Source of the DNA: a virus
Length of the DNA: 37,921 bases
Strand: one strand, 5' to 3'
UHGV virus genome: UHGV-0081762
Part shown: one piece after another, positions 1-37,488 of the stretch
Position numbering within the stretch: position 1 is the first letter of the stretch
How the letters are laid out: each line of letters starts with the position of its first letter
Program-made: the position numbers and the translations under genes
The notes under the pieces: model-generated
The model's input: only the letters and a program-made list of their open reading frames with translations
Databases searched by the model: none
What the model was told of the DNA's origin: nothing

Positions 1-6
1 TTCAGG

Positions 7-82
7 GCCGATATAGCTCAGTTGGTAGAGCAGCGCATTCGTAATGCGAAGGTCGGAGGTTCGACTCCTCTTATCGGCACCA
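7..82 (+). tRNA. thrW: tRNA-Thr (anticodon CGU), thrW-like; 3' portion from about position 37 is the prophage-side att copy
   Basis: Cloverleaf readable by eye: acceptor GCCGATA/TATCGGC, D-arm GCTC..GAGC, anticodon loop TTCGTAA (CGT), T-loop TTCGACT, CCA at 80-82. Confidence 0.85.
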
Positions 83-100
83 TTTAAATCAATAAGTTAC
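37..100. repeat. attL direct repeat (tRNA 3' half plus 18 bp downstream)
   Basis: attcgtaatgcgaaggtcgGaggttcgactcctCttatcggcaccatttaaatcaataagttac matches 37818-37881 with 2 mismatches. Confidence 0.85.
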
Positions 101-1257
101 CTCACATTTAAGTAAACCACGTTCTCCTCTTGTGCCGTATTTGTGCCATTGCGACTTATAATCGCATCGATTTTGCTCGCGTGCTCGGTGAGATGCCCGG
201 CTGAAAGGTGAGCGTATCTTTGAACCATTTCGAGAGTTTCCCATCCCCCCATCTCTTTAAGTGCAAGAAGAGAGACTCCGGACTGAACCAGCCAGCTTGC
301 CCAGGTGTGTCTCAGGTCATGGAATCGGAAGTTGCTAATGCCTGCCCGCTTTAACGCTCCCTTCCATGCTTTGTTGCTATCGGTTCTCATCTTCCTTACC
401 GCAGCTGTTTTTGTTCCGTCGCTTCGGTAGGCAGGTTTGGTGTGGACAAATACCCATCTCTTATGGAGCCCCTGCTGTTTTCTTAATATCTGGCATGCGG
501 TTTCGTTAAGAGGAACTCCGATCGCATTGCCAGCTTTTGTTTCATCAGGGTGCATCCATGCCATTTTCTTATCCAGATCGACCTGTGACCACTCAAGGTC
601 TGTAACGTTGGAACGGCGAAGGCCTGTAGTTATTGCGAACATGACCACAGGGAAGAAATGAGGAGCTATTTCTGCAAACAGGCGCTTCGATTCCTCTTCT
701 GTAAGCCATCTAATGCGTCCATTCTTAACGCGTGGTGTTGATATTTTGGGAGCCCTGTCAAGCCATCCCCATTCAACAGCCATATTGAGAATAGCGCGAA
801 GTATTGCCAGATGTCGCGTCTTCGTTCCTTTGCTTGCCAGCTTTGGTTTATACTCCGGCACTGGCTTGCCAAGCCGCAAACACCTGTCCCGGCTCATTTC
901 CCAGTTCAGGCGATGGCGGCGGTTTTCCATCCCGTCTACCGCCTCCATTATTTTTTCTGTTGTTATGTCAGAGAGAATGGTTTCTCTGAAGTGCAACATC
1001 CAGAACGATATAATGCTCTTGTCATCATCAATGGACTTCTTATCCGATTTCTCACGCAGCCACCGTATGCAGGCTTCCTTGAATAGCTTTTTCGGCGATT
1101 CCCCGAGATTTTTTACTCTCCACGCTTCTGCTTTCAGACGATCGTGAAGTTCTTGCGCTTGCCTTTTGTCCGATGTTTCAAGAGAGCGTCTAACTCTTGA
1201 TCCATCTGGCGCGACGAAATCGCAGTGCCACGTGCCACCGCGTAGTTTGATTGACAT
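97..1257 (-). CDS. int: Tyrosine integrase (P22/lambda Int family)
   Basis: 386-aa ORF adjacent to tRNA; C-terminal HDLRHTWAS and LEMVQRYAHL motifs typical of tyrosine recombinase catalytic domain. Confidence 0.9.
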   Translation of the reverse strand: MSIKLRGGTWHCDFVAPDGSRVRRSLETSDKRQAQELHDRLKAEAWRVKNLGESPKKLFKEACIRWLREKSDKKSIDDDKSIISFWMLHFRETILSDITTEKIMEAVDGMENRRHRLNWEMSRDRCLRLGKPVPEYKPKLASKGTKTRHLAILRAILNMAVEWGWLDRAPKISTPRVKNGRIRWLTEEESKRLFAEIAPHFFPVVMFAITTGLRRSNVTDLEWSQVDLDKKMAWMHPDETKAGNAIGVPLNETACQILRKQQGLHKRWVFVHTKPAYRSDGTKTAAVRKMRTDSNKAWKGALKRAGISNFRFHDLRHTWASWLVQSGVSLLALKEMGGWETLEMVQRYAHLSAGHLTEHASKIDAIISRNGTNTAQEENVVYLNVR

Positions 1258-1553
1258 GCTTTAACCTCCTGCACATCAACCGCATTCACCGCGCTATTGT
1301 GTCTCACAGACTTAAGCGCCGCAATGCAGTCTGACTTGCAAATGCGATATGGACTTTTAGGTTTATCTGGATTTATCTTTGCGGCCTGAAGTCGTCCACT
1401 TCGTATCCACTGTGTGATAGTGCCTTTGTCTACCTTCAGATACGACGCAGCTTCTTCACGAGTGAAGATTTCTTCTTCCACCTGGAATCTCCATTTATTG
1501 GATTGACATGATTGCGGTAGGTCTGGATATCTTGAGAAATGAACAGGCCTCAT
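1134..1553 (-). CDS. xis: Excisionase-like HTH DNA-binding protein (start uncertain; overlaps int 5' end)
   Basis: ORF directly upstream of int with FTREEAASYLKVDKGTITQWIRSGRL helix-turn-helix segment. Confidence 0.55.
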   Translation of the reverse strand: MRPVHFSRYPDLPQSCQSNKWRFQVEEEIFTREEAASYLKVDKGTITQWIRSGRLQAAKINPDKPKSPYRICKSDCIAALKSVRHNSAVNAVDVQEVKACQSNYAVARGTAISSRQMDQELDALLKHRTKGKRKNFTIV

Positions 1554-1580
1554 CGAGTGTGAGGCCGTGTGATTCCATAG

Positions 1581-1925
1581 TTAGTCCTTGCGTAGCTCGC
1601 TGATTCTTCTGTAAGTCTCTGGTGCTTTGTTTCCGTGTATCTTCATTTCCGACTTCAACAGAGCAACGAGGGAATCCCATTCGTTGAGGATTCCTTTGAA
1701 TGCCGGAACGCGCTTTGCAACCTTGTCGAATGAATCTCTGATTTCTGGAATCTGCTCGACAAGCGCAACGCATCGCCGGAAATCGGCTGCGTCATGTGGA
1801 GCGCCGAAGTGATGACCATAGATATTCTTTTTCAGTCCACATGCGATTGAGGCAAGAGTTGCGCTACTGATGCCGACATCGCCAGTCGATTGCCATTTCA
1901 AAACCTTCATAGCCAAATCTGACAT
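1581..1925 (-). CDS. Hypothetical protein (early-left accessory region)
   Basis: 114-aa ORF in operon orientation, downstream of intrinsic terminator. Confidence 0.5.
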   Translation of the reverse strand: MSDLAMKVLKWQSTGDVGISSATLASIACGLKKNIYGHHFGAPHDAADFRRCVALVEQIPEIRDSFDKVAKRVPAFKGILNEWDSLVALLKSEMKIHGNKAPETYRRISELRKD

Positions 1926-1959
1926 TTCTTGTCTCCATAAAACAAAACCCGCCGTAGCG

Positions 1960-1993
1960 AGTTCAGATAAAAGAAAACCCGCACTCGGCGGGT
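1960..1993 (-). terminator. Rho-independent terminator (leftward transcripts)
   Basis: Hairpin aacccgc/gcgggtt with 5-nt loop followed on minus strand by T-rich run (plus-strand ataaaagaaaa). Confidence 0.55.
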
Positions 1994-2151
1994 TCGCATT
2001 TGTTCAAATTGCGCTTACTTCTTGGCATTCTTCCCAGACATTTCCATGTATCGCGATTCGCTGACTTTAGGTGGTGTTAACGACTGCTCGCGATAGCATG
2101 TTAACTTTGTCGCGTTCTTCCTATGATTTTGCTGCAATGTTGAAAACAGAT

Positions 2152-2448
2152 TTATTGATCGCTTATAGTCTTAGACATTTCGAATTTTTCACCGATTGGC
2201 TTTAGCTCATCAATAGCCTTATAGATTTCGTCATTTGATGGTTTTTTACCAGAATAAGCATAGTTGTAAGCATAAAAAACATCTCCTCTGGTATCCTTGA
2301 ACTCCATAACAGAAATCTCTTGAACTTTTCCACTGTTATCACTTATTTCGATAGACTTGATGTCTTGGTGGCTTGTGTGCAGTCTTGGTTCTTTTCCTTC
2401 TTCAAAAATTATTTGCTGATACATGATCTGATCCTTGTAATTCATCAA
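2152..2448 (-). CDS. Hypothetical protein encoded in AT-rich moron-like segment
   Basis: 98-aa ORF; markedly AT-rich compared with flanking genes; terminator immediately downstream. Confidence 0.5.
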   Translation of the reverse strand: MMNYKDQIMYQQIIFEEGKEPRLHTSHQDIKSIEISDNSGKVQEISVMEFKDTRGDVFYAYNYAYSGKKPSNDEIYKAIDELKPIGEKFEMSKTISDQ

Positions 2449-2511
2449 ATAGTTAACAACAAAAAGTGAATTTGATTGTACCTAAAAATTCTTTTGCTTT
2501 CTGCTGCTGAT

Positions 2512-2832
2512 TTAGTCATTGATATTCACCTTTATCGCGAACACCTTTACCGGTTTATCTCCGAAGTGTGGATGTGTGATTGTCTTCACTTCATATCCGC
2601 CATACGGGACGTCAATTCTGCGACTGGAATCGTCGCGCTTCGGATATCCCTTTGTGATAATCAGGCGGTCATACTCGCGGAACATAATTCGCTTATTCCA
2701 GTAGTCATTAAACAGGCGATACTCTTCCGTTTTCTCTCCGCGAATCATGGCATCGAAGTATTCACCTTTAACGGCAAGTTGCAGGTTAGCCACGGTTAAC
2801 CTCCTGAGGCGGTTCTGCTGCAAAATACGCAA
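2512..2832 (-). CDS. ASCH/DUF3850-like domain protein
   Basis: 106-aa ORF with GEYFDAMIRGEKTEEYR...REYD pattern resembling ASCH/PUA-like fold proteins common in phages (from memory). Confidence 0.45.
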   Translation of the reverse strand: MRILQQNRLRRLTVANLQLAVKGEYFDAMIRGEKTEEYRLFNDYWNKRIMFREYDRLIITKGYPKRDDSSRRIDVPYGGYEVKTITHPHFGDKPVKVFAIKVNIND

Positions 2833-3691
2833 TACCTTTATCCCAGATGGATTTTATGGTCGTCCACGTGACTGGTACTTTAATTTCAATCCGCCCGCTA
2901 CCGTCACAGGTATCGCAATCATCATCGCCAAAGCATTCCGGGCAGCTGATAAACGTAGTTTCTGAAAATTCACCGGATAGCGCACCCTTAGCGCCGTTCT
3001 CGGCTGTTAGTCTCTTCGGCACCACGACCCAACCATCCGGAGTTACCGGAGAGTTGCCATTTACATCGAAGTTTGGCTCTGCGTCCTGAACCAGGAGGAT
3101 GTAACCATTCTTGGCAGTATCAAGTTCTAACGCCTCGGTGACGGTGCCGAAATAGCGATTGCCTAAATCAGCATCACAAGTGCTTACATCAATGGAAACT
3201 TCCATGCCCTCGATTAATTCTGGCAAGTTGTAAGTTTGGCTTACAGGTTCGGCACCATGAAGCATGGCGTCGCTCCGCTCTATGCCATCCAGCGCGATTC
3301 GCAGTGCCTGAATTGTGGTAATGCTATCGTTTGGGGCTATTCCATATCGCTCGAATACAGCGATATGACCGCGCATAATCTCAGGCGTAAGCTCTTTGTA
3401 AGCATAAGCAAGCGACCCTGATGCATCATCCGGCACAACCGACGCAGGCGCGGCAGCATAAACAGGAATAACGTCCGCTTGCTCTTTATTGCTTTCATCC
3501 GTTAAAGCCCAGAATAATTTCCCGGCCGGATGTTTGAAAATATAAGCAACTGGTTCTGCTTCCAGCGATGCCAGAGCAATTCGTGCCAGTTCTTCCGCTT
3601 CTTCTGCTGGCAGTACAACGTTGCTACCCGGTCCGTATGTTTCGCGCCACTGATTGATTGTCAGTAGTCGATCTTTGGCAATAGTGGTCAT
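2786..3691 (-). CDS. Hypothetical 301-aa protein with C-terminal Cys-rich zinc-ribbon-like motif
   Basis: Long ORF; C-terminal CPECFGDDDCDTCDGSGRIEI motif. Confidence 0.55.
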   Translation of the reverse strand: MTTIAKDRLLTINQWRETYGPGSNVVLPAEEAEELARIALASLEAEPVAYIFKHPAGKLFWALTDESNKEQADVIPVYAAAPASVVPDDASGSLAYAYKELTPEIMRGHIAVFERYGIAPNDSITTIQALRIALDGIERSDAMLHGAEPVSQTYNLPELIEGMEVSIDVSTCDADLGNRYFGTVTEALELDTAKNGYILLVQDAEPNFDVNGNSPVTPDGWVVVPKRLTAENGAKGALSGEFSETTFISCPECFGDDDCDTCDGSGRIEIKVPVTWTTIKSIWDKGIAYFAAEPPQEVNRG

Positions 3692-4203
3692 GCCGCGTTT
3701 CCTTCTTTCTTATTAACAATTACACCGTCATATATTTCATTAAGGTGCCCTCTCAACTCCATACGCCTTAATGCAGATAACATGTAATCGCATTCAACCT
3801 GCTTATTTCCAGTAAATGGCTTATCGTCAGGATTACCCCAACAGCAATTACCCTTGGGCCACCCATGTACTTTCCGTACTCTTCCGTTAACAACGTGAAG
3901 TAATCCCCAGCCAGGTGGTAAATCCTCAATTGAAATAATTCCCGGCTCACTAATAAAGAATCGCCAGTCGCCCATTCCAAGAGACGGATTTTTACGAAAA
4001 CGCTTTTTTCTATCTGCCAACAAGTCAGCACGAGAACATTTCGCCTCTATCAGGCATGATGCTGAATTTCTGAATCCCATAGCATCTGGCTGTTCTCCGG
4101 TACTGGTTACAGCTATAAAGCGGTCATGAAAACAAACCTTGAACCCGTTGCGCTTAAGGAACTTGTACGCAATCTGACAGAGTTCGCGGTGTGTTAACGC
4201 CAT
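3688..4203 (-). CDS. Putative PD-(D/E)xK nuclease-fold protein (MmcB-like)
   Basis: ORF with D...EAK motif (DAMGFRNSASCLIEAKCSRAD); start placed at MALTH with strong AAGGAG RBS; longest ORF extends to 4275. Confidence 0.45.
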   Translation of the reverse strand: MALTHRELCQIAYKFLKRNGFKVCFHDRFIAVTSTGEQPDAMGFRNSASCLIEAKCSRADLLADRKKRFRKNPSLGMGDWRFFISEPGIISIEDLPPGWGLLHVVNGRVRKVHGWPKGNCCWGNPDDKPFTGNKQVECDYMLSALRRMELRGHLNEIYDGVIVNKKEGNAA

Positions 4204-4738: not shown

Positions 4739-5494
4739 CTACTCACCTCCGTTGATGCGAATGCCAGCGGCACGGGAATCATTCCATCGCTTTACTTCTT
4801 CACGAATTACGTCAATGCATTCTTTCGAATCCATTAGGTAATCTTCATCAAAAAGCCTTTCCTGTTCGTTTTCTATCGCAACAATGATTGCTTCAACTAA
4901 CTTTTGTGCCTGAGAACCACTTTCTAACTCTGCAATGCGCTTCTCTGCGGCTTCCAGCTTCTCGCGCATATCGTCAACGTACTCGACCAGAGATCCGCCA
5001 GCAGGAATTTCGCACTCCTCGACCAGTTGGAAGTAGATATCAGCTGCGGCCCGTGTGTTGCTATGCCTAGCGTCGCCCATCTCACCTTCACGAAGAGCAT
5101 CGCGTTCGGCGGTAAGATTGGCTATTTTGCTGTCTTTGCCTTCCAGCTCAACGCGAAGCCTCCCTACCGTTAGCGCAATTTCCTCGTTCTCCTGGTCACG
5201 GCGTTTGATGTATTGCTGGTTTCTTTCCAGTTCATCCAGTAATGCCGTCACGGTAGCTGGATTGGCTGCGGCGATGAATTCAGCATTGGCCTGCTGTTCT
5301 ATTTGGAAATCTTCATCGAAACCGCTTTCAGGATGCGCTCCTTCAATTCTGCAAATGGGAATATATCCAGCAACTTCACGATGAATTAGCGCATCATCAC
5401 CATCAAATCAGCTCTTTCCATATTCGAGCGACCACTCGCCACACGTTGCTTTTTCTGCCTTAGCACGCAGTGCCTGATAATCAATCTTGCTCAC
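4739..5494 (-). pseudogene. Ead/Ea22-like gene interrupted by in-frame TGA (N-terminal 28 codons, stop, then in-frame continuation; GTG at 5251 could restart)
   Basis: Minus-strand frame reads [28 protein letters not shown]-stop-FDGDDALIHREVAGY... continuing into the 170-aa ORF 4739-5251; coiled-coil Ea22-like C-terminus. Confidence 0.5.
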
Positions 5495-6093
5495 TGGTTG
5501 CCTCCTTTGCGAAGCTGGGCAGCAAAGTCAACTAACCACTCAGTCATTTCAACCTTCCCTACCAGGTCTGAACCAGGGTGCATACAGCAATCACTCTGCG
5601 CCGCTTTGAAATCCTTATACTCATATTCTTGGGCCACCAGATTTTTTGCAGCTTCTATAGCAGCATCCACCCCCTGCGCCCGAACTTCAGCCAGGAAAGC
5701 ATCAGTGGCTGACATATTTCCTGTTGCCTTCATGGCCTTCAAAATAACCAGAACGCCATCTCGCCCAACCACCTCAGCGATAACCTCGGTGTTGTCGCCA
5801 ACAACATCGCAGAATGCCTGAACTGCCTTACGAGCCAGCTCATTCTCCGCCGCAAGCGCCGAAAACTTCTCGTGTGCCAACTTAACAACTGCATCAGCCT
5901 GCTTAATTGACTCAATCGCTCTCTGCTGGTCTTCGGACAGAGCCGAAATCTTGGCCTCCGCTTCAGCAAATTTGCGCACCAGATATTCAGCGTTTGTTTC
6001 GTTAACCTTTAAATCTCGTGGGATGCATTTACCTTTCAGAAATCCACCCATCTCAATTAGTGACATTTGTTTCATTTTTTCCCACTCCGCCAC
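5491..6093 (-). CDS. Ead/Ea22-like family protein
   Basis: 200-aa ORF with Ala/Glu-rich coiled-coil region, position in ea region. Confidence 0.5.
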
Positions 6094-6232
6094 ATCGCAT
6101 TCAGATATTTGTTTTGATTCACTGACGGAAAAGAATTTCTCTTAAGCAATTCCTCTCTCGATGGCATTGGCTTTACGCGTTGGCGAATAATCATTTCTGC
6201 CGGAAGAATGCCGGGATTGTATGCAAGTCCTC

Positions 6233-6514
6233 TCATGATTTACTCTCCACGAACTGGTCAATAGCCATGCTAAGTGACACACCTAAATTCTCGATATGTT
6301 GCTGAATATCCTGTAGCGTCTGCGCCTGAGATAACAGGATTTCACGGTTGCATAATTCTTTAACCAGATGCTCAAACTTGCTGTAATAACCGATACGGCT
6401 TAGTGTTTCTTTCCCTGCATTCTCGCCTTCTTTGATAATTCCTCTTTCGCTAAGAATCAGGTCGTGTTTGGTTCCGGTAATAACGTATTTTCCGAGGTCG
6501 ATGTTTAGCTTCAT
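6233..6514 (-). CDS. Hypothetical protein
   Basis: 93-aa ORF in operon orientation. Confidence 0.45.
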
Positions 6515-6530
6515 TGTTAATTACTCCATG

Positions 6531-6845
6531 TTAATTTATTCGTATGCCTGCTCTTTCTTCATCGAGTTTTTTTAGCTTGTATCGCATAGCTCTCACTGAA
6601 TAAATTGAGCGGCAGGTTGCAATTGCTATTTCTTCTGCGGAGAACTTACCGAAAAGTGATACTTCGGCTCTTGTCCAGCGTCTTCCACGAAGTCGGCTAA
6701 CAATGTCAGCGCCAATCCTTGTTGCTTTCGCCATTACTGCTTTTTCAGTCCTTTCCAGTTTTTCAGCGATAACTTCAACTGGCATTGTTGCCGCTACTTC
6801 GCGCAAGAAATCGACTTCCCATTTCTCCCAAGGAGTCTTTTTCAT
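6531..6845 (-). CDS. Hypothetical protein
   Basis: 104-aa ORF in operon orientation. Confidence 0.45.
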   Translation of the reverse strand: MKKTPWEKWEVDFLREVAATMPVEVIAEKLERTEKAVMAKATRIGADIVSRLRGRRWTRAEVSLFGKFSAEEIAIATCRSIYSVRAMRYKLKKLDEERAGIRIN

Positions 6846-7345: not shown

Positions 7346-8225
7346 CCTCCAGTTTCGCTTTGCATTCTATGTAAATGGCTTGTACGTTCTGCTGCAATTT
7401 CATTCCAGATGTCAGGCGATATGCTTCTGCAAAATATCGCTTCAAATCATCCATGTTTTCTGCCTGAGCCATTTCATCACAAAGAAGTTGTGCTTTATCC
7501 ATTATTTCCTGCTGGCGTTTCCGTTCATCTTCGCGGATATCTTCCTCTGATTTGTGCGGCATAACTGGCTCCTGATGCATACCTTCATCTTCGTTAAGCA
7601 GGTGAATGGCATTATCCAGTCGCTGGGCTTTAGGCCAGTATTTGCTGGCGCGTTTAACTATTGTTTTACGTGCCATCTCTTCCCAGAATGTTTTCCACGG
7701 TCCATTCTTTGCCTTGCTCGTTGCTTCCACAGCTTTAATTTCTGCCAGACTCATTTCTTCAGTCAGGTAGTCACCATCTGCTGTTTTAACCGTGCAATAA
7801 CCACCAACAATAGAGCCTCGCTCACCAAATGCGTTGTATTTGTGGGTTGGTGCTGAATCAAGGCCATTTGATTCATAGGTGTCGTTTGAGTACACCAGTT
7901 TGCATTGCCCCCACTTAATTGAACCTGTCGATTGCGCAAGGTGAAGTAATCCCATGTAACTGATATCAAGGCACACCATGCCGTCGCGAGGAACCAGATA
8001 AGCCAGTTTGCTGGCCGGGTTTAAGGTGATGCCGATCGCCGCAACATTGATGATAGCGTTCTGTGCGCTGGTTGGATTTGCCAGTGCCGTTTTAGCCAGG
8101 TAATCATTTTTCTGGAAATACTGAATTGCAAACTGGCTTTCCTTAGCCCATGTCACCGTCTGTTCAGTCAATGCTCCGCAGAATAACTGCTCCTGCTGTT
8201 TAACGAATTCAACGATATTGCTCAT
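7323..8225 (-). CDS. recT: RecT-family single-strand annealing recombinase
   Basis: 300-aa ORF; position equivalent to bet/erf in early-left operon; sequence recalled as RecT-like. Confidence 0.75.
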   Translation of the reverse strand: MSNIVEFVKQQEQLFCGALTEQTVTWAKESQFAIQYFQKNDYLAKTALANPTSAQNAIINVAAIGITLNPASKLAYLVPRDGMVCLDISYMGLLHLAQSTGSIKWGQCKLVYSNDTYESNGLDSAPTHKYNAFGERGSIVGGYCTVKTADGDYLTEEMSLAEIKAVEATSKAKNGPWKTFWEEMARKTIVKRASKYWPKAQRLDNAIHLLNEDEGMHQEPVMPHKSEEDIREDERKRQQEIMDKAQLLCDEMAQAENMDDLKRYFAEAYRLTSGMKLQQNVQAIYIECKAKLEVASEQTI

Positions 8226-8533
8226 GCTGCTTCTCCAAAAATGTGTCTGCGTTTGAATATTGCGAAGGCATATTCAGCCTTAACTCTTTTGGTTATTGCA
8301 TCCCAGAACCATTTAGCGGCTTCTTCCTGATAGTCACAGTCATCATCTTCCAGCCAGTCGATAGCGTCCTTAGTGTGTTCATCTGGTTTATATGAGCGAA
8401 GCATTTCGCTTATTGGGTCGCAACGTTTGCAGAGGCGATCAACTTCACTGTTGATTCGTTCGTAATCTTCATCAGTAAAACTTGCGATTATTTGCGATAT
8501 TTCACGCTTATCATTCAGAGTCAGAATCATCAT
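8222..8533 (-). CDS. Hypothetical acidic protein upstream of recT (Abc/anti-nuclease position)
   Basis: 103-aa ORF with acidic tract DWLEDDDCDYQEE; translationally coupled to recT. Confidence 0.45.
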   Translation of the reverse strand: MMILTLNDKREISQIIASFTDEDYERINSEVDRLCKRCDPISEMLRSYKPDEHTKDAIDWLEDDDCDYQEEAAKWFWDAITKRVKAEYAFAIFKRRHIFGEAA

Positions 8534-8614
8534 CTTTCTCCTGTTCTTTGTGCTGATTGAGCATTTTGTTCATCTGACGAATGAATTCTTCGTCTGACCA
8601 GTTATCTGTAAAAC

Positions 8615-8767
8615 TCATTTCCTGCGATACCACGGAAGGTTGATAGCTGATTTCATCGCTTTATTTGCTTCAAGCCACATTTTGGAATCACCAATAAATC
8701 TGGCTATTACTGCTTTGTTCTGTGCAGCACGAAGCATCTGGTGATTGATGGCTATTTCATTGCGCAT
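8615..8767 (-). CDS. kil: Kil-like host cell-division inhibitor (50 aa)
   Basis: Hand-translated MRNEIAINHQMLRAAQNKAVIARFIGDSKMWLEANKAMKSAINLPWYRRK; FIGDxKM core resembles lambda Kil; sits next to cIII. Confidence 0.45.
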   Translation of the reverse strand: MRNEIAINHQMLRAAQNKAVIARFIGDSKMWLEANKAMKSAINLPWYRRK

Positions 8768-8883
8768 AATAAGACCTCAACTCTTTTCCATCTGTCACGT
8801 AATTTACGGGTGATTCGTTCAAGTAAAGATTCATTTAGTTGGAAGACACCCATGCGAGCGCCTCCCGCGATTGCGTAAATCAT
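8752..8883 (-). CDS. cIII: CIII-like FtsH(HflB) protease inhibitor (43 aa)
   Basis: Hand-translated MIYAIAGGARMGVFQLNESLLERITRKLRDRWKRVEVLLCAMK; core ESLLERITRKLRDxWKR matches lambda CIII. Confidence 0.75.
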   Translation of the reverse strand: MIYAIAGGARMGVFQLNESLLERITRKLRDRWKRVEVLLCAMK

Positions 8884-8910
8884 GGGTGGTTCCTTATGTT
8901 GGTTTTATTA

Positions 8911-9261
8911 GTAGATTATTTTTGTTGCGAATACTTCGCCTTTTACGATGGCTGTTATGATATTTTTAGCAACATCTTCTGATGCACCAACCTTGATAAG
9001 GTCAGCAAGTATTTTGTTATTTACTTCTTTCCGGTGAGCTTTATCCTTTGCTCTACGCTCTTCTTCGTCCTTGATTCTTTTTTCTTCTGCTATTCTGGCT
9101 TGCTCTTTTGCTTCAGCCTCGCGACGGATTCGTTCAGCCTCCTCCTGTGCTTTTCTGCGTTCTGCTTCAATTGCTGCCTGCTTTTCTCTTTCAGCTCGTT
9201 CTGCTGCCTCTTTTGCTTCGCGCTGTGCTCGTTGCTCGGCTTGCCGTCGTGCAGCTGCACT
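8911..9261 (-). other. Start-less 117-codon open frame (Glu/Ala/Arg/Lys-rich, low-complexity) in the expected N-gene position immediately downstream of nutL
   Basis: Minus-strand frame open from in-frame TGA (9262-9264) to TAA (8908-8910) with no ATG/GTG/TTG; translation SAAARRQAEQRAQREAKEAAERAEREKQAAIEAERRK...KIIY. Confidence 0.4.
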
Positions 9262-9292
9262 TCACGTCACCCCAAAGCCAACTACTCTTTGG

Positions 9293-9335
9293 TTCCCGCA
9301 TTTCGGCGGGACAATCCCATCAATGTTAAAGAGCC
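9293..9335 (-). promoter_or_regulatory. nutL-like site (boxA GGCTCTTTAACA, boxB hairpin TTCCCGCCGAAATGCGGGAA)
   Basis: boxA-like motif and hairpin identical to the boxB-like hairpin after cro. Confidence 0.65.
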
Positions 9336-9379
9336 TGCCAATCTGTTCCGTTTGGCTACCAGCGTCCTGCTGATGGCTA

Positions 9380-9470
9380 AAGAATACTGTAGGTATTTTA
9401 TTGTGTAAATACCCAAGGTATTTATTTTTGGTGAAATAATGATAAGCAAATGAATACAAAGGATATTTAT
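9380..9470 (-). promoter_or_regulatory. oL/pL region with three 15-bp operators of form AATAC-N5-GTATT
   Basis: AATACTGTAGGTATT (9383-9397), AATACCCAAGGTATT (9418-9432), AATACAAAGGATATT (9453-9467). Confidence 0.6.
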
Positions 9471-9554
9471 TTTTTTCGGTGTCTGCTTGTTCAGTGCTTT
9501 TTATGCGGGATATGTGAAGTGGATCCCGATAGCTATTGCTGCCGGGATTATGGG

Positions 9555-9944
9555 TTAGTCAGCGAAGGTTAAGACGAGAATTACCTTAATGATGTCTGCT
9601 ACAACAGACACGGCCATAGATAAACCAAAGACAATCCAAGCCATAGAGATGTCTTCACTACCATCGTATAGAGTTCCGTAATCACTGGTGTAAGGCGTAA
9701 ATGTCGCGCCTTGATACAATAGGTATAAGCTTGATCCATAGAGAATAAATGCAGATATCCCTTGTATTGCCATGATCACCAGAATCATGAAACGAGCTGA
9801 TCTATGCGCCCAAGCCTGGCTTATTTTTTCTGATAGAGATTTCGCAATAAAAGCATGCGCTAAGCCGTAAATTGTCGAGATTGCCAACATCCCAAAAAAG
9901 CTTGCTATAGCGGTTCCAACCATAAGCGCCCCTTGCGTGATCAA
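9555..9944 (-). CDS. Small integral membrane protein (about 4 TM segments) co-transcribed downstream of cI (rex/sie position)
   Basis: 129-aa ORF, ATGA overlap with cI stop; hydrophobic segments. Confidence 0.6.
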   Translation of the reverse strand: MITQGALMVGTAIASFFGMLAISTIYGLAHAFIAKSLSEKISQAWAHRSARFMILVIMAIQGISAFILYGSSLYLLYQGATFTPYTSDYGTLYDGSEDISMAWIVFGLSMAVSVVADIIKVILVLTFAD

Positions 9945-10657
9945 ACCAGCCTTAGTTTTGTCTCAATTGCAACGCCTATAATCTTGCAGTTTCCATTGAT
10001 TGGCACGAGAGGCCATGCAGGGTTAAGTCCCTTGAGGTATTTATTTCCGCCGTCGATTATCAGCTTCTTGAATGTTGCTTCGTTAGAGTCAGAAAGTTTT
10101 GCTATGACCAAGCTGCCGTTGATCGCCTCCCTTCCGGTATCGAAAAGAACGAATGTTCCCTCTGGAATGCTTAACCCAACCGGTGCCGTCATTGAATCAC
10201 CTTCCACTTTAAGCCAAAACGCATTACCTTGAATATGCGCGTCAGACTCAAGCCAAACATCTATGTCTTTAATGGTGTATGGTTCGCATGCTTCACACCA
10301 CGAGCCAGCCTGGATACTGCTTAACACCGGATACCTCTTTCCTGCTCTGTATTCCCCTGCATACCTTACGTTGGCATCGCTCTTAAGGCTTTCTGCCTGT
10401 TCTGCAACCTTGGCAGCAATTGACTGGCTAAAATCAGCAATTGAGACTTGCAACAATCGTGCAAAACCAGATGCAACCTCAACGTTTAGCGCATTTCTGC
10501 CATTAAGATAATGCCCTACCGCTCCTTGGGTGATACCCAGTTCATCAGCGATTGAGTATTGGGTTATTCCCAATTCTTTCTTTTTTGACTCATACAAAGC
10601 CTTAAGCCGCTTAGCGTCTTCCAGCTGTTCTGTCGTCAGTGATTTTTTATTTTCCAT
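9941..10657 (-). CDS. cI: CI-type repressor (HTH plus S24 LexA-like peptidase domain)
   Basis: 238 aa; N-terminus TTEQLEDAKRLKALYESKKKELGITQ closely resembles lambda CI; C-terminal FWLKVEGDSMTAP and FKKL motifs. Confidence 0.9.
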   Translation of the reverse strand: MENKKSLTTEQLEDAKRLKALYESKKKELGITQYSIADELGITQGAVGHYLNGRNALNVEVASGFARLLQVSIADFSQSIAAKVAEQAESLKSDANVRYAGEYRAGKRYPVLSSIQAGSWCEACEPYTIKDIDVWLESDAHIQGNAFWLKVEGDSMTAPVGLSIPEGTFVLFDTGREAINGSLVIAKLSDSNEATFKKLIIDGGNKYLKGLNPAWPLVPINGNCKIIGVAIETKLRLV

Positions 10658-10763
10658 AGCTTAATTCTAATAGCTAAGGTACTTAAACTAAAAATACCCT
10701 GAGTATTGATTGCTTTGAATACCTGTAGTATTCTTTATTCATGGTTAATAACGGAGAGTGCAT
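10658..10763. promoter_or_regulatory. oR/pRM/pR divergent control region with three AATAC-N5-GTATT-type operators
   Basis: AATAGCTAAGGTACT (10669-10683), AATACCCTGAGTATT (10693-10707), AATACCTGTAGTATT (10718-10732); candidate pR TTGATT-17-TATTCT. Confidence 0.6.
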
Positions 10764-10958
10764 ATGATTCGAATGACACTTGCCGATTACGCCAAAATCC
10801 ATGGACAGGCTAAAGCAGCCAGTGACTTTGGTGTAATCCAGTGCGCTATCAGCAAGGCCATTCTGGCAGGCCGTAACATCATGGTTACGGTAAAGCCTGA
10901 TGGCAGTGTGATTGGAGAGGAAGTTCGTCCTTTCCCAAGCAACAAGAAAAACAAATAG
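10764..10958 (+). CDS. cro: Cro repressor
   Basis: [24 protein letters not shown]...FPSNKK aligns with lambda Cro; GGAG RBS; longest ORF starts at GTG 10758. Confidence 0.85.
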
Positions 10959-10964
10959 TAACAC

Positions 10965-11009
10965 CGCTCTTTAACAGTCATGGTCATCATTCCCGCCGAA
11001 ATGCGGGAA
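10965..11009 (+). promoter_or_regulatory. nutR-like site (boxA CGCTCTTTAACA, boxB hairpin TTCCCGCCGAAATGCGGGAA)
   Basis: Canonical boxA sequence followed 13 nt later by 8-bp stem hairpin identical to nutL copy. Confidence 0.7.
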
Positions 11010-11066
11010 TACAACGCGCATAAGTTGATGCGCATAACTTCTTATTTGTTAAGGAAATACTTACAT

Positions 11067-11345
11067 ATGCAACTTACAAGTACTCGCAAGAAAGCGAATG
11101 CAATTACAAGCAACATCCTGAATCGAATTGCTGTACGTGGTCAGCGAAAGGTTGCCGACGCGTTAGGGATTAATGAATCGCAAATTTCGCGATGGAAAGA
11201 CAGCTTCATCCCCAAAATGGGAATGCTTCTGGCTGTTCTTGAATGGGGTGTTGAAGACGAGGAGTTGGCGGAACTGGCTAAGAAAGTAGCCAGAATGCTG
11301 ACAAAAGAAAAAGCCCCGAAGAACGGCGAATTCTTCGAGGCCTGA
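11067..11345 (+). CDS. cII: CII transcriptional activator
   Basis: ESQISRWKDSFIPKMGMLLAVLEWGV matches lambda CII core; start at MQLT with AAGGAAA RBS; longest ORF from 10980 overlaps nutR. Confidence 0.8.
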   Translation: MQLTSTRKKANAITSNILNRIAVRGQRKVADALGINESQISRWKDSFIPKMGMLLAVLEWGVEDEELAELAKKVARMLTKEKAPKNGEFFEA

Positions 11346-11379
11346 TGTAGAAAGACTGGATCAATCCACAGGAGTCATT

Positions 11380-11541
11380 ATGACAAAACGTCGTAAGAAA
11401 TACCAGGAAAAAGAAGAGATTCGACACCCTGATTCACCTGAGGGATTAGTGGTAGCCGCAGCAAATAACAGGGCGTTCGCAGAGCGCCTTGTTGGTGTTT
11501 ACAGACTAGCCAAAGCAGGAGTGAAACATGGGCGTCGTTAA
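11380..11541 (+). CDS. Small basic hypothetical protein (53 aa)
   Basis: Hand-translated MTKRRKKYQEKEEIRHPDSPEG...GVKHGRR; GGAG RBS; between cII and replication gene. Confidence 0.35.
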   Translation: MTKRRKKYQEKEEIRHPDSPEGLVVAAANNRAFAERLVGVYRLAKAGVKHGRR

Positions 11542-12349
11542 GTTAGCTGATTACAGGCCTCAACTGGAGGTCGTGGAGCATCGCGTGGCAGATACCGAAG
11601 ATGGTTTCATGCGCGTTGCTAACGAGATTACCGACAGTCTGCTGATGGCTGATTTAACCGTCCGGCAGTTGAAGGTGATGCTCGCTATCATGCGCAAGAC
11701 ATACGGATTCAATAAGCCGATGGATCGACTCACAAACACGCAGATAGCAGCCATGACAGGTATTCATCACACTCATGTTTGCGCTGCCAAGCGCCAGCTT
11801 ATTGAGCGTAAATTCCTCATTGCTGATGGCGTGAAAATCGGAGTGAACAAGGTGGTTTCGCAGTGGATTAGCCAGGATAGCTTAACATTAGCTAAAACAG
11901 CTAATAAAACATTAGCCAAGTCGGCTAATGGGTATAAGCCAAGTCAGCTAAACACAAAAGACAATATACAAAAGACAATAAATACAAATACCCCCTTACC
12001 CCCTAACGGGGGCGGCGATGGGCAGGTTAAACCTGAACGTCGCAAGGCAGAACGAATCGACTACGAATCCTTCCTGAACGCCTACAACACCGAAGTCGGT
12101 GACAGACTGCCACACGCTGTTGCAGTCAACGAGAAACGCAAACGCCGCCTGAAGAAAATCATCCCGCAACTGAAAACGCCAAACGTGGACGGTTTCAGAG
12201 CGTATGTCAGGGCGTTTGTACATCAGGCCAAGCCGTTTTACTTCGGAGACAACGACACGGGCTGGACGGCCGATTTTGATTACCTGCTGAGGGAAGATTC
12301 GTTAACGGGAGTACGGGAAGGGAAGTTTGCAGACAGGGGGATTGCATGA
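11528..12349 (+). CDS. Replication initiator, lambda O-like (replisome organizer)
   Basis: N-terminal [32 protein letters not shown] resembles lambda O DNA-binding domain. Confidence 0.8.
11885..12025 (+). repeat. Candidate origin (iteron-like repeats plus AT-rich tract inside O-like gene)
   Basis: Repeats agccaagtc/agctaa several times, acaaaagacaata twice, then cccccttaccccctaacggggg. Confidence 0.45.
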
Positions 12350-13722
12350 AACAGGATATCGAAGCGAGCGTTATCGGTGGCCTGCTGATTGGTGGATTAA
12401 CACCAACCGCCAGCGACGTTCTGGCAACGCTGGAGCCGGAAGCGTTTTCAATTCCGCTCTACCGGAAAGCCTTCGAAGTTATCCGCAAGCAGGCGAGAAA
12501 CAGAAACCTAATCGACGCGCTGATGGTTGCCGAGGAGTGCGGAGAGGAGCATTTCACGTCAATCCTGATGACCAGTAAGAACTGCCCGAGTGCCGCAAAC
12601 CTGAAGGGATATGCCGGAATGGTCGCGGATAACTATCACCGCCGTCTGGTGCTGGAAATCATGGATGAAATGCGTGAACCAATTCAGAGCGGAACCATCG
12701 ACGCATCGAGTCAGGCGATGGATGAGCTTGTAAAGCGTCTTTCAGCCATCAGAAAGCCCCGTGACGAGGTTAAACCTGTACGGTTAGGGGAAATCATTAC
12801 TGACTACACTGACACGCTTGACAGGCGTCTGAGGAACGGAGAAGAGTCCGACACCCTGAAGACCGGAATCGAAGAACTTGATGCCATCACCGGAGGGATG
12901 AACGCAGAAGACCTGGTGATAATCGCTGCTCGTCCTGGTATGGGGAAAACCGAACTAGCGCTGAAGATTGCCGAAGGCGTTGCAAGCCGCGTTATTCCTG
13001 GTTCTGACGTCCGGCGCGGGGTATTGATTTTCTCAATGGAAATGAGCGCATTGCAGATTGCAGAGCGAAGCATTGCCAACGCCGGGAGGATGTCGGTTAG
13101 CGTACTGCGAAATCCTGCATCGATGGATGACGAAGGCTGGGCGCGCGTTGCTAACGGCATGAGTCAGCTTGCAGATTTGGATGTATGGGTAGTCGATGCC
13201 TCGCGGTTATCGGTCGAAGAAATACGCTCAATCGCAGAACGGCACAAACAGGAAAATCCAAACCTGTCACTCATCATGGCGGATTATCTTGGCCTGATTG
13301 AGAAGCCGAAAGCAGACCGCAACGACCTCGCAATTGCTCACATCTCCGGAAGCCTGAAGGCGATGGCGAAAGACCTGAAAACGCCAGTTATCTCCCTGAG
13401 TCAGCTTTCGCGCGATGTTGAGAAGCGACCAAACAAACGCCCGACAAACGCAGATTTGCGTGATTCAGGAAGCATTGAGCAGGACGCAGACTCAATCATC
13501 ATGCTCTATCGGGAAGCGGTATATGACGAGAACAGTAGCGCCGCGCCATTTGCTGAAATCATTGTGACAAAAAACCGTTTTGGCTCGCTTGGTACGGTTT
13601 ACCAGCGGTTCTGTAACGGACACTTTGTTGCATGTGACCAGGATGAAGCCAGACAGATTTGCACAACATCAAATGCACCCGCTGCACGTGGCAGGCGATA
13701 TGCACAAGGGGCTGACGTATGA
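12346..13722 (+). CDS. Replicative DNA helicase (DnaB family; P22 gene 12-like)
   Basis: 458 aa; Walker [13 protein letters not shown], DnaB-like motifs. Confidence 0.85.
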
Positions 13723-13747: not shown

Positions 13748-13779
13748 AGGCCTGCTGGTAATCGCAGGCCTTTTTATTT
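13748..13779 (+). terminator. Rho-independent terminator after replication genes (tR2-like position)
   Basis: aggcctgc-8 nt loop-gcaggcct followed by TTTTTATTT. Confidence 0.6.
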
Positions 13780-13794
13780 GGGGGAGAGTAAATC

Positions 13795-16698: not shown

Positions 16699-17341
16699 TG
16701 GCAGCAAATACCGAAATATTTGGGTAGTTGGCGATCTGCACGGATGCTACACGAACCTGATGAAAAAACTGGAGACGATAGGATTCGACACCAAAAAAGA
16801 CCTTCTTATCTCGGTTGGCGATTTGGTCGATCGCGGTACAGAGAACGTTGAATGCCTGGAATTAATCACATTCCCCTGGTTCAGAGCTGTACGTGGAAAC
16901 CATGAGCAAATGATGATTGATGGCTTATCAGAGCGCGGAAACGTCAATCACTGGCTGCTTAATGGCGGTGGCTGGTTCTTTAATCTCGATTACGACAAAG
17001 AAATTCTGGCTAAAGCTCTTGCCCATAAAGCAGATGAACTTCCGTTAATCATCGAACTGGTGAGTAAAGATAAAAAATATGTCATCTGCCACGCCGATTA
17101 TCCTTGTGACGAATACGAGTTTGGAAAGCCAGTTGATCATCAGCAGGTAATCTGGAACCGCGAACGAATCAGCAACTCACAAGACGGGATCGTGAAAGAA
17201 ATTAAAGGCGCGGACACGTTCATCTTTGGTCATACGCCAGCAGTGAAACCGCTCAAATTTGCCAACCAGATGTATATCGATACCGGCGCAGTGTTCTGCG
17301 GAAATCTCACATTGATTCAGGTACAGGGAGAAGGCGCATGA
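16676..17341 (+). CDS. Ser/Thr protein phosphatase (lambda PPase/NinI-like metallophosphatase)
   Basis: GDLHGCY and GDLVDRG metallophosphoesterase motifs; start at MRYYEK. Confidence 0.85.
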
Positions 17342-17961
17342 GACTCGAAAGCGTAGCTAAATTTCATTCGCCAAAAAGCCCGATGATTAGCGACTCACCA
17401 CGGGCTACGGCTTCTGACTCTCTTTCCGGTACTGATGTGATGGCTGCTATGGGGATGGCGCAATCACAAGCCGGATTCGGAATGGCTGCATTCTGTGGTA
17501 AGCACGAACTCAGCCAGAACGACAAACAAAAGGCTATCAACTATCTGATGCAATTTGCACACAAGGTATCGGGGAAATACCGTGGTGTGGCAAAGCTTGA
17601 AGGAAATACTAAGGCAAAGGTACTGCAAGTTCTCGCAACATTCGCTTATGCGGATTATTGCCGTAGTGCCGCGACGCCGGGTGCAAGATGCAGAGATTGC
17701 CACGGTACAGGCCGTGCGGTTGATATAGCAAAAACAGAGCTGTGGGGGAGAGTTGTCGAGAAAGAGTGCGGAAGATGCAAAGGTGTCGGCTATTCAAGGA
17801 TGCCAGCAAGCGCCGCATATCGCGCTGTAACGATGCTAATCCCAAACCTTACTCAACCCACCTGGTCACGCACTGTTAAGCCGCTGTATGACGCTCTGGT
17901 GGTGCAATGCCACAAAGAAGAGTCAATCGCAGACAACATTTTGAACGCGGTCACACGTTAG
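17338..17961 (+). CDS. Q: Late gene antiterminator Q (lambda Q-like)
   Basis: 207 aa; [16 protein letters not shown]... essentially lambda Q as recalled. Confidence 0.9.
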
Positions 17962-18234: not shown

Positions 18235-18309
18235 GGGTCAGTCGTATAAAGGTCATTACGGAAGGCTGTTAACCTTCTTATCGTGGTTCGAGTCCACGCT
18301 GTCCCGCCA
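18235..18309 (+). tRNA. tRNA-like gene, probable anticodon GUU (Asn); one acceptor-stem and one D-stem mismatch
   Basis: Hand-folded: acceptor GGGTCAG/CTGTCCC, anticodon stem GAAGG/CCTTC with loop CTGTTAA, T-arm CGTGG-TTCGAGT-CCACG, GCCA end. Confidence 0.45.
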
Positions 18310-18314
18310 AATAT

Positions 18315-18390
18315 GCTGGTTTAGCTCCAATGGTAGAGCAGTCGCCTTGTAAGCGAATGGGTAGCGGTTCAAGTCCGTTAACCAGCACCA
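18315..18390 (+). tRNA. tRNA, probable anticodon UGU (Thr)
   Basis: Hand-folded: acceptor GCTGGTT/AACCAGC, D-arm GCTC-CAATGGTA-GAGC, anticodon loop CTTGTAA, T-loop TTCAAGT, ACCA end. Confidence 0.6.
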
Positions 18391-36800: not shown

Positions 36801-36820
36801 ATAGCGCAGGGATGCGCTAT
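36801..36820. terminator. Bidirectional hairpin between convergent tailspike and acetyltransferase genes
   Basis: Perfect inverted repeat atagcgc-aggga... gcgctat. Confidence 0.5.
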
Positions 36821-37488
36821 TCAACAATTTCACCGGATGGAAGAATTGTAAATCTCTTATAAGATGCCTTCTTTTTATCTTTTACAGCATTAAACTGCTC
36901 TAAAAAAGTAGTCGGTGTCCTTGTATCAATCCCAATAAATGAGCTTAAATCATATTCCCACCATTGGCTATCCAGTAACTCTTTGATGATTGATTCCTCA
37001 AATCTGTACCCTAGGTGTTTTGCAGAAACGCCACCTACGATTGAATATGGCTCGACATTTTTGGTGACAATAGCGCCAGCAGCAATAACAGCGCCAGTAC
37101 CAATAGTTATACCTCGCCTGATAACCGCATTTGCACCTATCCATACGTCATGACCAATTCTTGGTATACCATGCTTCTGTTGAGAGAGGTCGCGTTGCAT
37201 TCCTATACCATCAGGGATTTTAAAACCATTTTTTGAGCCAAAGAAAAAAGGATGCGTAGAAAAATACCCAGTTTCATGCTCGCCAAGGCCAATTTTTACT
37301 CCTGGAGCAACTGAACAAAATCTACCCATCGTAAAGCCGCCGAGCATACAATTAGCGCCAAAGTAGGAGAATGCTCCAACATTTATTGGGGCAACAACAA
37401 GACCTGAAGCATGAAAAAAACATTGCTCCTCGAAGCTAACTTTTGCTTGTGGAGTCATCTGAACGCTTAACATTGCATCAATCACCAT
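36817..37488 (-). CDS. Hexapeptide-repeat acetyltransferase, XAT family (CatB/Vat-like)
   Basis: [45 protein letters not shown] and [16 protein letters not shown] align with CatB-type chloramphenicol acetyltransferase as recalled. Confidence 0.7.

Follow-up and report, generated by a model that had tools for sequence, protein, structure and literature searches.

The DNA that we analyzed, a stretch of 37,921 nucleotides that we call the window, is very probably a P22-like prophage that has lost approximately 2.16 kb of its early left operon by a simple deletion with 2 bp of microhomology, and we are equally confident that the start-less reading frame beside its nutL site is the leftover of a gp33-like gene. 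As we reconstruct the event, the deletion would have started in an untranslated leader, 54 bp upstream of the start codon of the N antiterminator gene (55 bp in HK620), and would have ended inside a 322-codon gene of the Sf6 gp33 family. It would have removed the N gene, the small accessory ORFs after N, intrinsic terminators of the tL type, and the first ~211 codons of the gp33-like gene.

By its sequence, the window is a Lederbergvirus-type prophage integrated at thrW. A tRNA-Thr(CGT) gene (7-82, plus strand) adjoins the integrase gene (97-1257, minus strand), and because the two lie directly side by side we regard the DNA as an integrated prophage and not as a free phage genome. The genes are arranged in the order integrase, early left operon, cI, cro, cII, O, DnaB-type helicase, nin region, Q, lysis, head and tailspike, with cI at 9941-10657 on the minus strand and cro at 10758-10958. 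Directly downstream of cI, in the position of lambda rex, there is an hkaS-like gene for a predicted membrane protein of 122 amino acids (9555-9923, minus strand; PHROG 6534), which is conserved in all the HK620-immunity prophages that we saw. Two tRNA genes, Asn(GTT) and Thr(TGT), are located at 18235-18390 on the plus strand between the Q-like gene and the lysis genes; Stx phages carry tRNAs and toxin genes between Q and the lysis genes. Just after the tailspike gene there is a 223-aa ORF (36817-37488, minus strand) whose matching region in RefSeq is annotated as a CatB-related O-acetyltransferase, and which is possibly an O-antigen-modifying lysogenic conversion gene.

Identity of the start-less frame

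On the minus strand, positions 8911-9261 form an open frame of 117 codons in which our translation of 8908-9420 found no in-frame ATG, GTG or TTG. The frame is bounded upstream by an in-frame TGA (9262-9264) and ends at a TAA stop codon (8908-8910); it reads SAAARRQAEQ...ATKIIY*, i.e. SAAARRQAEQRAQREAKEAAERAEREKQ to VKGEVFATKIIY, and is preceded by ...GFGVT. Alanine (21%), glutamate (19%), arginine (14%) and lysine (12%) dominate its composition, and the other two frames contain only short ORFs. Retranslation therefore agrees with the description in an earlier note on this DNA, which reported a charged frame of 117 residues with no start codon and with a TGA upstream. Two further ORFs cross the same region in other frames, one of 56 aa initiated by GTG (9090-9260) and one of 36 aa initiated by ATG (9191-9301); neither has a match in a set of 15 billion proteins, and both are in our view due to chance.

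A tblastn search aligned the frame with residues 210-322 of Sf6 gp33, a protein of 322 aa (97% identity, E = 3e-59), and in a PHROG scan the frame matches the C-terminal ends of PHROG 21365 (E = 4e-63) and PHROG 1376 (E = 1e-37), with alignments that reach the ends of both profiles. Profile searches of the 117-aa frame, as the earlier note had proposed, found no N family and led to these two PHROGs instead. From tblastn, the PHROG matches and nucleotide comparison together, the gp33-like 3' remnant extends over 8908-9240 on the minus strand and comprises the last 110-111 codons plus the TAA. Over 333 nt it differs from intact genes by 2 mismatches, without an indel or a frameshift; it carries one private substitution (Thr to Ile at 8915), and at the DNA level it is 99.4% identical to the gp33-like gene of the Escherichia coli DETEC-P61 prophage. 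Because the frame is the native reading frame of a gene fragment that aligns to intact genes over 333 nt with 2 mismatches and no indel, its openness is not a chance event. Retention of the native frame of the last third of the gp33-like gene explains why the frame is long, open and start-less, with a leader stop upstream; the start codon went with the first two thirds of that gene. Codons one to seven (SAAARRQ) belong to the non-coding leader of an HK620-type N gene, on the other side of the junction, and the upstream TGA also derives from this unrelated N leader and not from the gp33-like gene.

The position of the remnant is that of the family. The gp33-like gene usually lies immediately before cIII, at a distance of 1-2 kb downstream of N, and the window has the remnant directly upstream of cIII-kil, in the same order as in Sf6, 683R2, E200086, DETEC-P61 and DP051. 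In one comparison prophage locus the 322-aa gp33-like gene is at positions 5487-6455, and four more have orthologs of it. What the remnant lacks is the full length of the family (~322 aa, with an ATG and an N-terminal PHROG 17211 region); the 5' 634 nt are deleted, and there is neither a start codon nor a ribosome-binding site of its own. Because only the last ~111 codons are kept, we view the remnant as a fragment and not as a functional member of the gp33 family, and 8908-9240 is best called a pseudogene fragment. The earlier note had also suggested looking in related phages for an ortholog initiated by ATG; a homologous frame does exist there, with its ATG ~209 codons upstream, but it is not N.

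RefSeq names members of the gp33 family 'cell envelope biogenesis protein TolA' or 'coiled-coil domain-containing protein', and the gene is called "TolA" in vB_EcoP-683R2. For the parent gp33-like protein we found no relative in Pfam, in NCBIfam or in the PDB (searched by sequence), and its only matches in these databases were compositional and below threshold: the CAF1A acidic region, Zuotin and NlpC_P60. Because Pfam and NCBIfam give no support and the PDB matches are only compositional, the 'TolA' label looks compositional and is probably misleading.

Could the frame nevertheless be translated from a non-canonical start, such as the ATT at codon 31, to give an Arg/Ala/Glu-rich peptide that acts on boxB as a substitute N or in a Nun-like way? 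Near-cognate ATT, ATC and ATA codons are indeed present in frame, and the frame contains ARRQAEQRAQRE, which loosely resembles an arginine-rich motif (the cognate N has RRRARRQAQRE). Yet there is no significant similarity to N. A BLASTP comparison between the frame and the cognate N gave E = 0.36, and the frame had no match to Pfam N_peptide, PHROG 271 or NCBIfam, whereas the cognate N of a relative matches PHROG 271 at E = 5e-37 in the same PHROG scan. Moreover, the frame is 99.4% identical to coiled-coil sequence inside a 322-aa protein that intact phages encode alongside N, part of its Arg-rich start is non-coding leader, a TGA lies directly upstream in frame, and there is no canonical start. 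We consider this explanation extremely improbable. The frame is not similar in sequence to lambda-type N (PF25694/PHROG 271), is not a translatable gene with a start and an N-terminal arginine-rich motif, and is not the first gene after nutL at the conserved offset.

The earlier note had already remarked that the frame is not recognizable as the N of lambda, phi21 or P22, and our tblastn, profile and BLASTP searches, all without a significant match, bear this out. The three explanations it had offered do not hold: the frame is not a degenerate N, being residues 210-322 of gp33 with E = 0.36 against the cognate N; it is not an N with a non-canonical start, being a gp33 fragment with no similarity to N; and it is not a different antitermination factor, since the gene it comes from normally coexists with N. 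Its idea that the Arg-rich N-terminal part could be an RNA-binding motif is disfavored as well, because part of that stretch, SAAARRQ, comes from the non-coding leader.

The missing N gene and the deletion junction

The window retains the sites at which N would act. The boxA sequence GCTCTTTAA occurs once on each strand, at 9334-9326 (minus) and 10966-10974 (plus), and so does the boxB core CCGCCGAAATGCGG, at 9309-9296 (minus) and 10993-11006 (plus); the sequence search thus agrees with the earlier note that nutL and nutR have identical boxA and boxB elements. Using a pattern search, folding and the HK620 annotation, we placed nutL at 9294-9334 on the minus strand, with boxA GCTCTTTAACA at 9334-9324 and the boxB hairpin TCCCGCCGAAATGCGGGA at 9311-9294. 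The same sequence forms nutR at 10966-11008 on the plus strand (boxA 10966-10976, boxB hairpin 10991-11008). Both boxB elements fold as hairpins, both sites have boxA followed by boxB and lie downstream of pL and cro, respectively, and the left site coincides with the annotated nutL of HK620. A pL promoter of the HK620 type (9381-9409, minus strand; TTTACA-17-TATTCT) was identified by a promoter scan and aligns with the annotated pL of HK620. An Rfam scan of 8000-11600 gave no match. A TTG-initiated ORF of 65 aa (9262-9459, minus strand) overlies pL, the operators and nutL. Many records of E. coli, Salmonella and phages list it as a 'hypothetical protein', and it falls in a cluster of 45 members, but it is almost certainly an annotation artefact over regulatory DNA.

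An identical copy of this nutL-leader ORF is present in 24 public contigs, which represent 10 distinct contexts. The gene that follows it encodes 87-101 aa in all 10 contexts, begins 76 bp downstream in 9 of them, and has a Pfam N_peptide match in 6. The earlier note's expectation that N should lie directly after nutL therefore stands for the relatives, every one of which has a gene of 87-101 aa there, but in the window this slot is without N. The N gene of relatives begins 54-55 bp past the junction described below, in DNA that the window does not have.

To look for N elsewhere we searched the whole window by tblastn with seven N proteins and found nothing significant. Four of these queries were of the HK620 type, phi21-like hybrids and the lambda-like Sf6 gp37, and the other three were the N proteins of lambda, P22 and phi21. 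A profile of seven database-derived N proteins, compared to all 1,129 six-frame segments of the window, had a best E-value of 0.21, and the 117-aa frame was not among its matches at E ≤ 10. An N homolog elsewhere in the left operon, which the earlier note had named as a result that would overturn its reading, was not found in the window. By these searches, nutL is an orphan site with no cognate N gene in the window, and the absence of N from the whole window probably leaves the prophage defective for antitermination, as the earlier note had suggested among its options. The HK620-type N gene has the sequence MTVVITYLADDNARNRRRARRQ..., and genes of this type are common in E. coli prophages.

Three-way alignments place the deletion junction at 9240-9242; the last base of HK620 type is 9241, and the first of gp33 type falls at 9242-9240. 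Base by base, the match to the HK620-type parent is perfect to ...CACGACGGCAA and the match to the gp33-type parent is perfect from AAGCCGAGCAACG...; the two share only AA. This dinucleotide, at 9242-9241, is common to both parents and constitutes a 2-bp microhomology at the junction 9241|9240, where there is no foreign or scar sequence. On one side, 9241-9960 (cI, hkaS, oL/pL and nutL) is 98% identical to HK620, a similarity that breaks off 55 bp short of the N start codon in that phage (54 bp in DETEC-P61). This side includes an untranslated remnant of the leader between nutL and N (9241-9293, minus strand), which the three-way alignments show to be identical to HK620 and DETEC-P61 up to 9241. 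On the other side, 8500-9242 matches Sf6 and vB_EcoP-683R2 at 98.5% identity; this match begins within Sf6 gene 33 and extends through cIII and kil.

Both flanks are found together in a single prophage, that of E. coli DETEC-P61 (NZ_CP116152.1), where they are collinear and in the same orientation with 2,160 bp between them. Window positions 9241-13200 (the left flank) are 98.3% identical to positions 1-3960 of the DETEC-P61 prophage, and positions 8569-9242 (the right flank) are 98.8% identical to its positions 6121-6794. The intervening segment contains 54 bp of leader, an N gene of the HK620 type (90 aa, MTVVITYLADDNARNRRRARRQAQREQ...), three small ORFs and the first 634 nt of a gp33-like gene that is 969 nt long; its transcribed strand also has three hairpins that resemble terminators. 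The E200086 prophage is arranged alike, its segment measuring 1.85 kb and including a strong tL2A-like terminator. Because the remnant has no frameshift and only one private substitution, we take the deletion to be recent and strain-specific.

Illegitimate recombination between two co-infecting or co-resident lambdoid phages could have made the same junction, and N would have been lost all the same. Early left operons of lambdoid phages are highly mosaic, and the DNA just downstream of boxB (the equivalent of 9260-9292) is a mosaic hot spot among the relatives: JNE120393 and DP051 have an insertion of ~250 bp at the place that corresponds to 9291/9292, and the divergence of E200086 begins at 9260. 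However, functional mosaic joints here retain N in each of the 10 contexts, and because the DETEC-P61 prophage alone carries both flanks, at 98-99% identity, one deletion suffices. We therefore prefer a deletion within one prophage and regard recombination between two phages as unlikely.

We compared 8500-9960 by megablast with 50,697 phage records and 5,426 complete E. coli genomes; hundreds of these match one half of the query or the other, but none matches across the middle. An exact 40-mer spanning the junction was absent from the viral, genome and metagenome collections searched, and there was no junction-spanning ORF among 15 billion proteins. Because we found no related genome with the exact junction, the deletion event rests on one sequence. 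These results are what would be seen if the junction were an artefact of assembly or sequencing, a chimeric join or a collapse, and the real prophage still had N. On the other hand, the two sides have only 2 bp in common, which makes misassembly driven by a repeat unlikely, the order and orientation of the flanks are those of single intact prophages, and the junction is clean of foreign or scar sequence. An artefact is, in our judgment, very unlikely, and a real deletion by illegitimate recombination remains the preferred reading.

Expected consequences for transcription

The first intact gene downstream of nutL is cIII (8752-8883, minus strand; 43 aa), which we identified from the ORF list, ortholog annotations and Pfam Lambda_CIII matches in relatives; it is followed by kil (8615-8767, minus strand; 50 aa), identified from the ORF list and ortholog annotations. 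A terminator scan of the minus strand from 9241 to about 5766 found no terminator-like site. Because no such site lies between the junction and about 5766, pL transcripts would be expected, on derepression and by analogy with lambda and P22 genetics, to run through the remnant into cIII, kil and recT without N. The gp33-like fragment would then be transcribed from pL as the 5' leader of cIII-kil, and we do not expect it to be translated. At 1945-1995, close to where the left operon ends and upstream of the integrase region, both strands have a cluster of strong terminator-like hairpins.

Rightward transcription would be affected differently. A consensus scan detected a strong intrinsic terminator on the plus strand at 13748-13781 (AGGCCTGC...GCAGGCCT TTTTATTT at 13748-13771), with an 8-bp stem that includes 6 GC pairs. 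It lies directly after the helicase gene (12346-13722), between pR and Q and upstream of the nin genes, in the position of lambda tR2, and it would need N for read-through. In lambda that is defective for N, the nut sites are left without their factor and early transcription is expected to halt at the first strong terminators, and therefore Q and the late genes are not expressed. In the window, the only antiterminator gene left is a Q-like late antiterminator (17338-17961, plus strand; PHROG 127, E = 5e-83). Q, NinG, NinI, O, the helicase, TerL, the portal, the coat, the tailspike and the integrase are all present at full length. N itself acts by binding NUT RNA through an arginine-rich motif, and together with NusA, NusB, NusE and NusG it renders RNA polymerase resistant to terminators (PMC4496710).

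Lambda and P22 genetics lead us to infer that pR transcripts would stop at the terminator after the helicase gene, giving too little Q, and that lytic growth would fail unless an HK620-type N were supplied in trans. Because the strong terminator remains between pR and Q, late-gene expression probably fails without such a supply. The retained nut sites could be used by a matching N from another prophage in the same host. The window has lost a gene that is essential for lytic development and present in the related contexts, as is the case for defective lambdoid prophages.

Alternatively, the prophage might still be lytic without its own N, either by read-through of the remaining terminators or through the HK620-type N of a co-resident prophage acting on nutL and nutR. 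In favor of this, both nut sites are intact and the other main genes all look so, E. coli prophages commonly carry N genes of the HK620 type, and the deletion took the left-operon terminators too. Set against this are the strong terminator that persists between pR and Q, the presence of the nin region (NinG and NinI), when growth of lambda without N reportedly needs a deletion of that region, and the failure to find the junction in any phage isolate or virome searched. We consider continued lytic growth improbable, and a block to late-gene expression the better reading.

It is also conceivable that the element, otherwise intact, is maintained in its N-less state on purpose, as a case of domestication that blocks the late genes and lysis. 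In that event cIII, kil and the RecT recombination module would lie directly under pL without terminators, and a related phage, superinfecting or co-resident, could rescue the element by supplying N to nutL and nutR, which would make it a satellite-like element that depends on the N of a helper. We saw no evidence of selection for the N-less arrangement of the window, and we think its deliberate maintenance distinctly unlikely.

Interpretation and relation to known systems

The window is an ordinary, recently crippled prophage; it holds no new kind of antiterminator. A start-less charged frame beside a nut site can mimic a candidate for a new antiterminator, and here it is the deletion remnant of a neighboring gene. 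Separate comparison of each flank with related prophages settles such cases quickly. For annotation, 8908-9240 should be marked as a pseudogene fragment, and the region should not be called N. The prophage looks complete by gene content, yet because N is missing it should be flagged as probably non-inducible for phage production.

Compared to the HK620/phi21/H-19B-type N system (PF25694, PHROG 271), what the window retains (pL, nutL, nutR and 53 bp of leader before N) is 98% identical, but the N coding sequence is entirely absent. The remnant resembles the Sf6 gp33 family in sequence and in its location directly 5' of cIII-kil, and differs from it by the loss of the first ~209 codons, the ATG and the ribosome-binding site. 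The window is like N-defective lambda prophages in that its nut sites are left without their factor and its late genes are expected to be silent. It is unlike the N-defective, nin5 and byp forms of lambda in that a natural deletion took its N and the left-operon terminators together, and unlike the N-independent nin5 and byp mutants in having no compensating nin deletion (NinG, NinI and the terminator at 13748 are present). On its left arm the window also resembles engineered pL constructs. In the pSIM-type pL-Red recombineering plasmids, the segment from N to kil is deleted together with its terminators, and pL drives the recombination genes without N. In the window, likewise, pL and nutL are followed directly by cIII, kil and recT, without the terminators that had stood between them, but its deletion is natural, keeps kil and cIII, and leaves a gene fragment behind.
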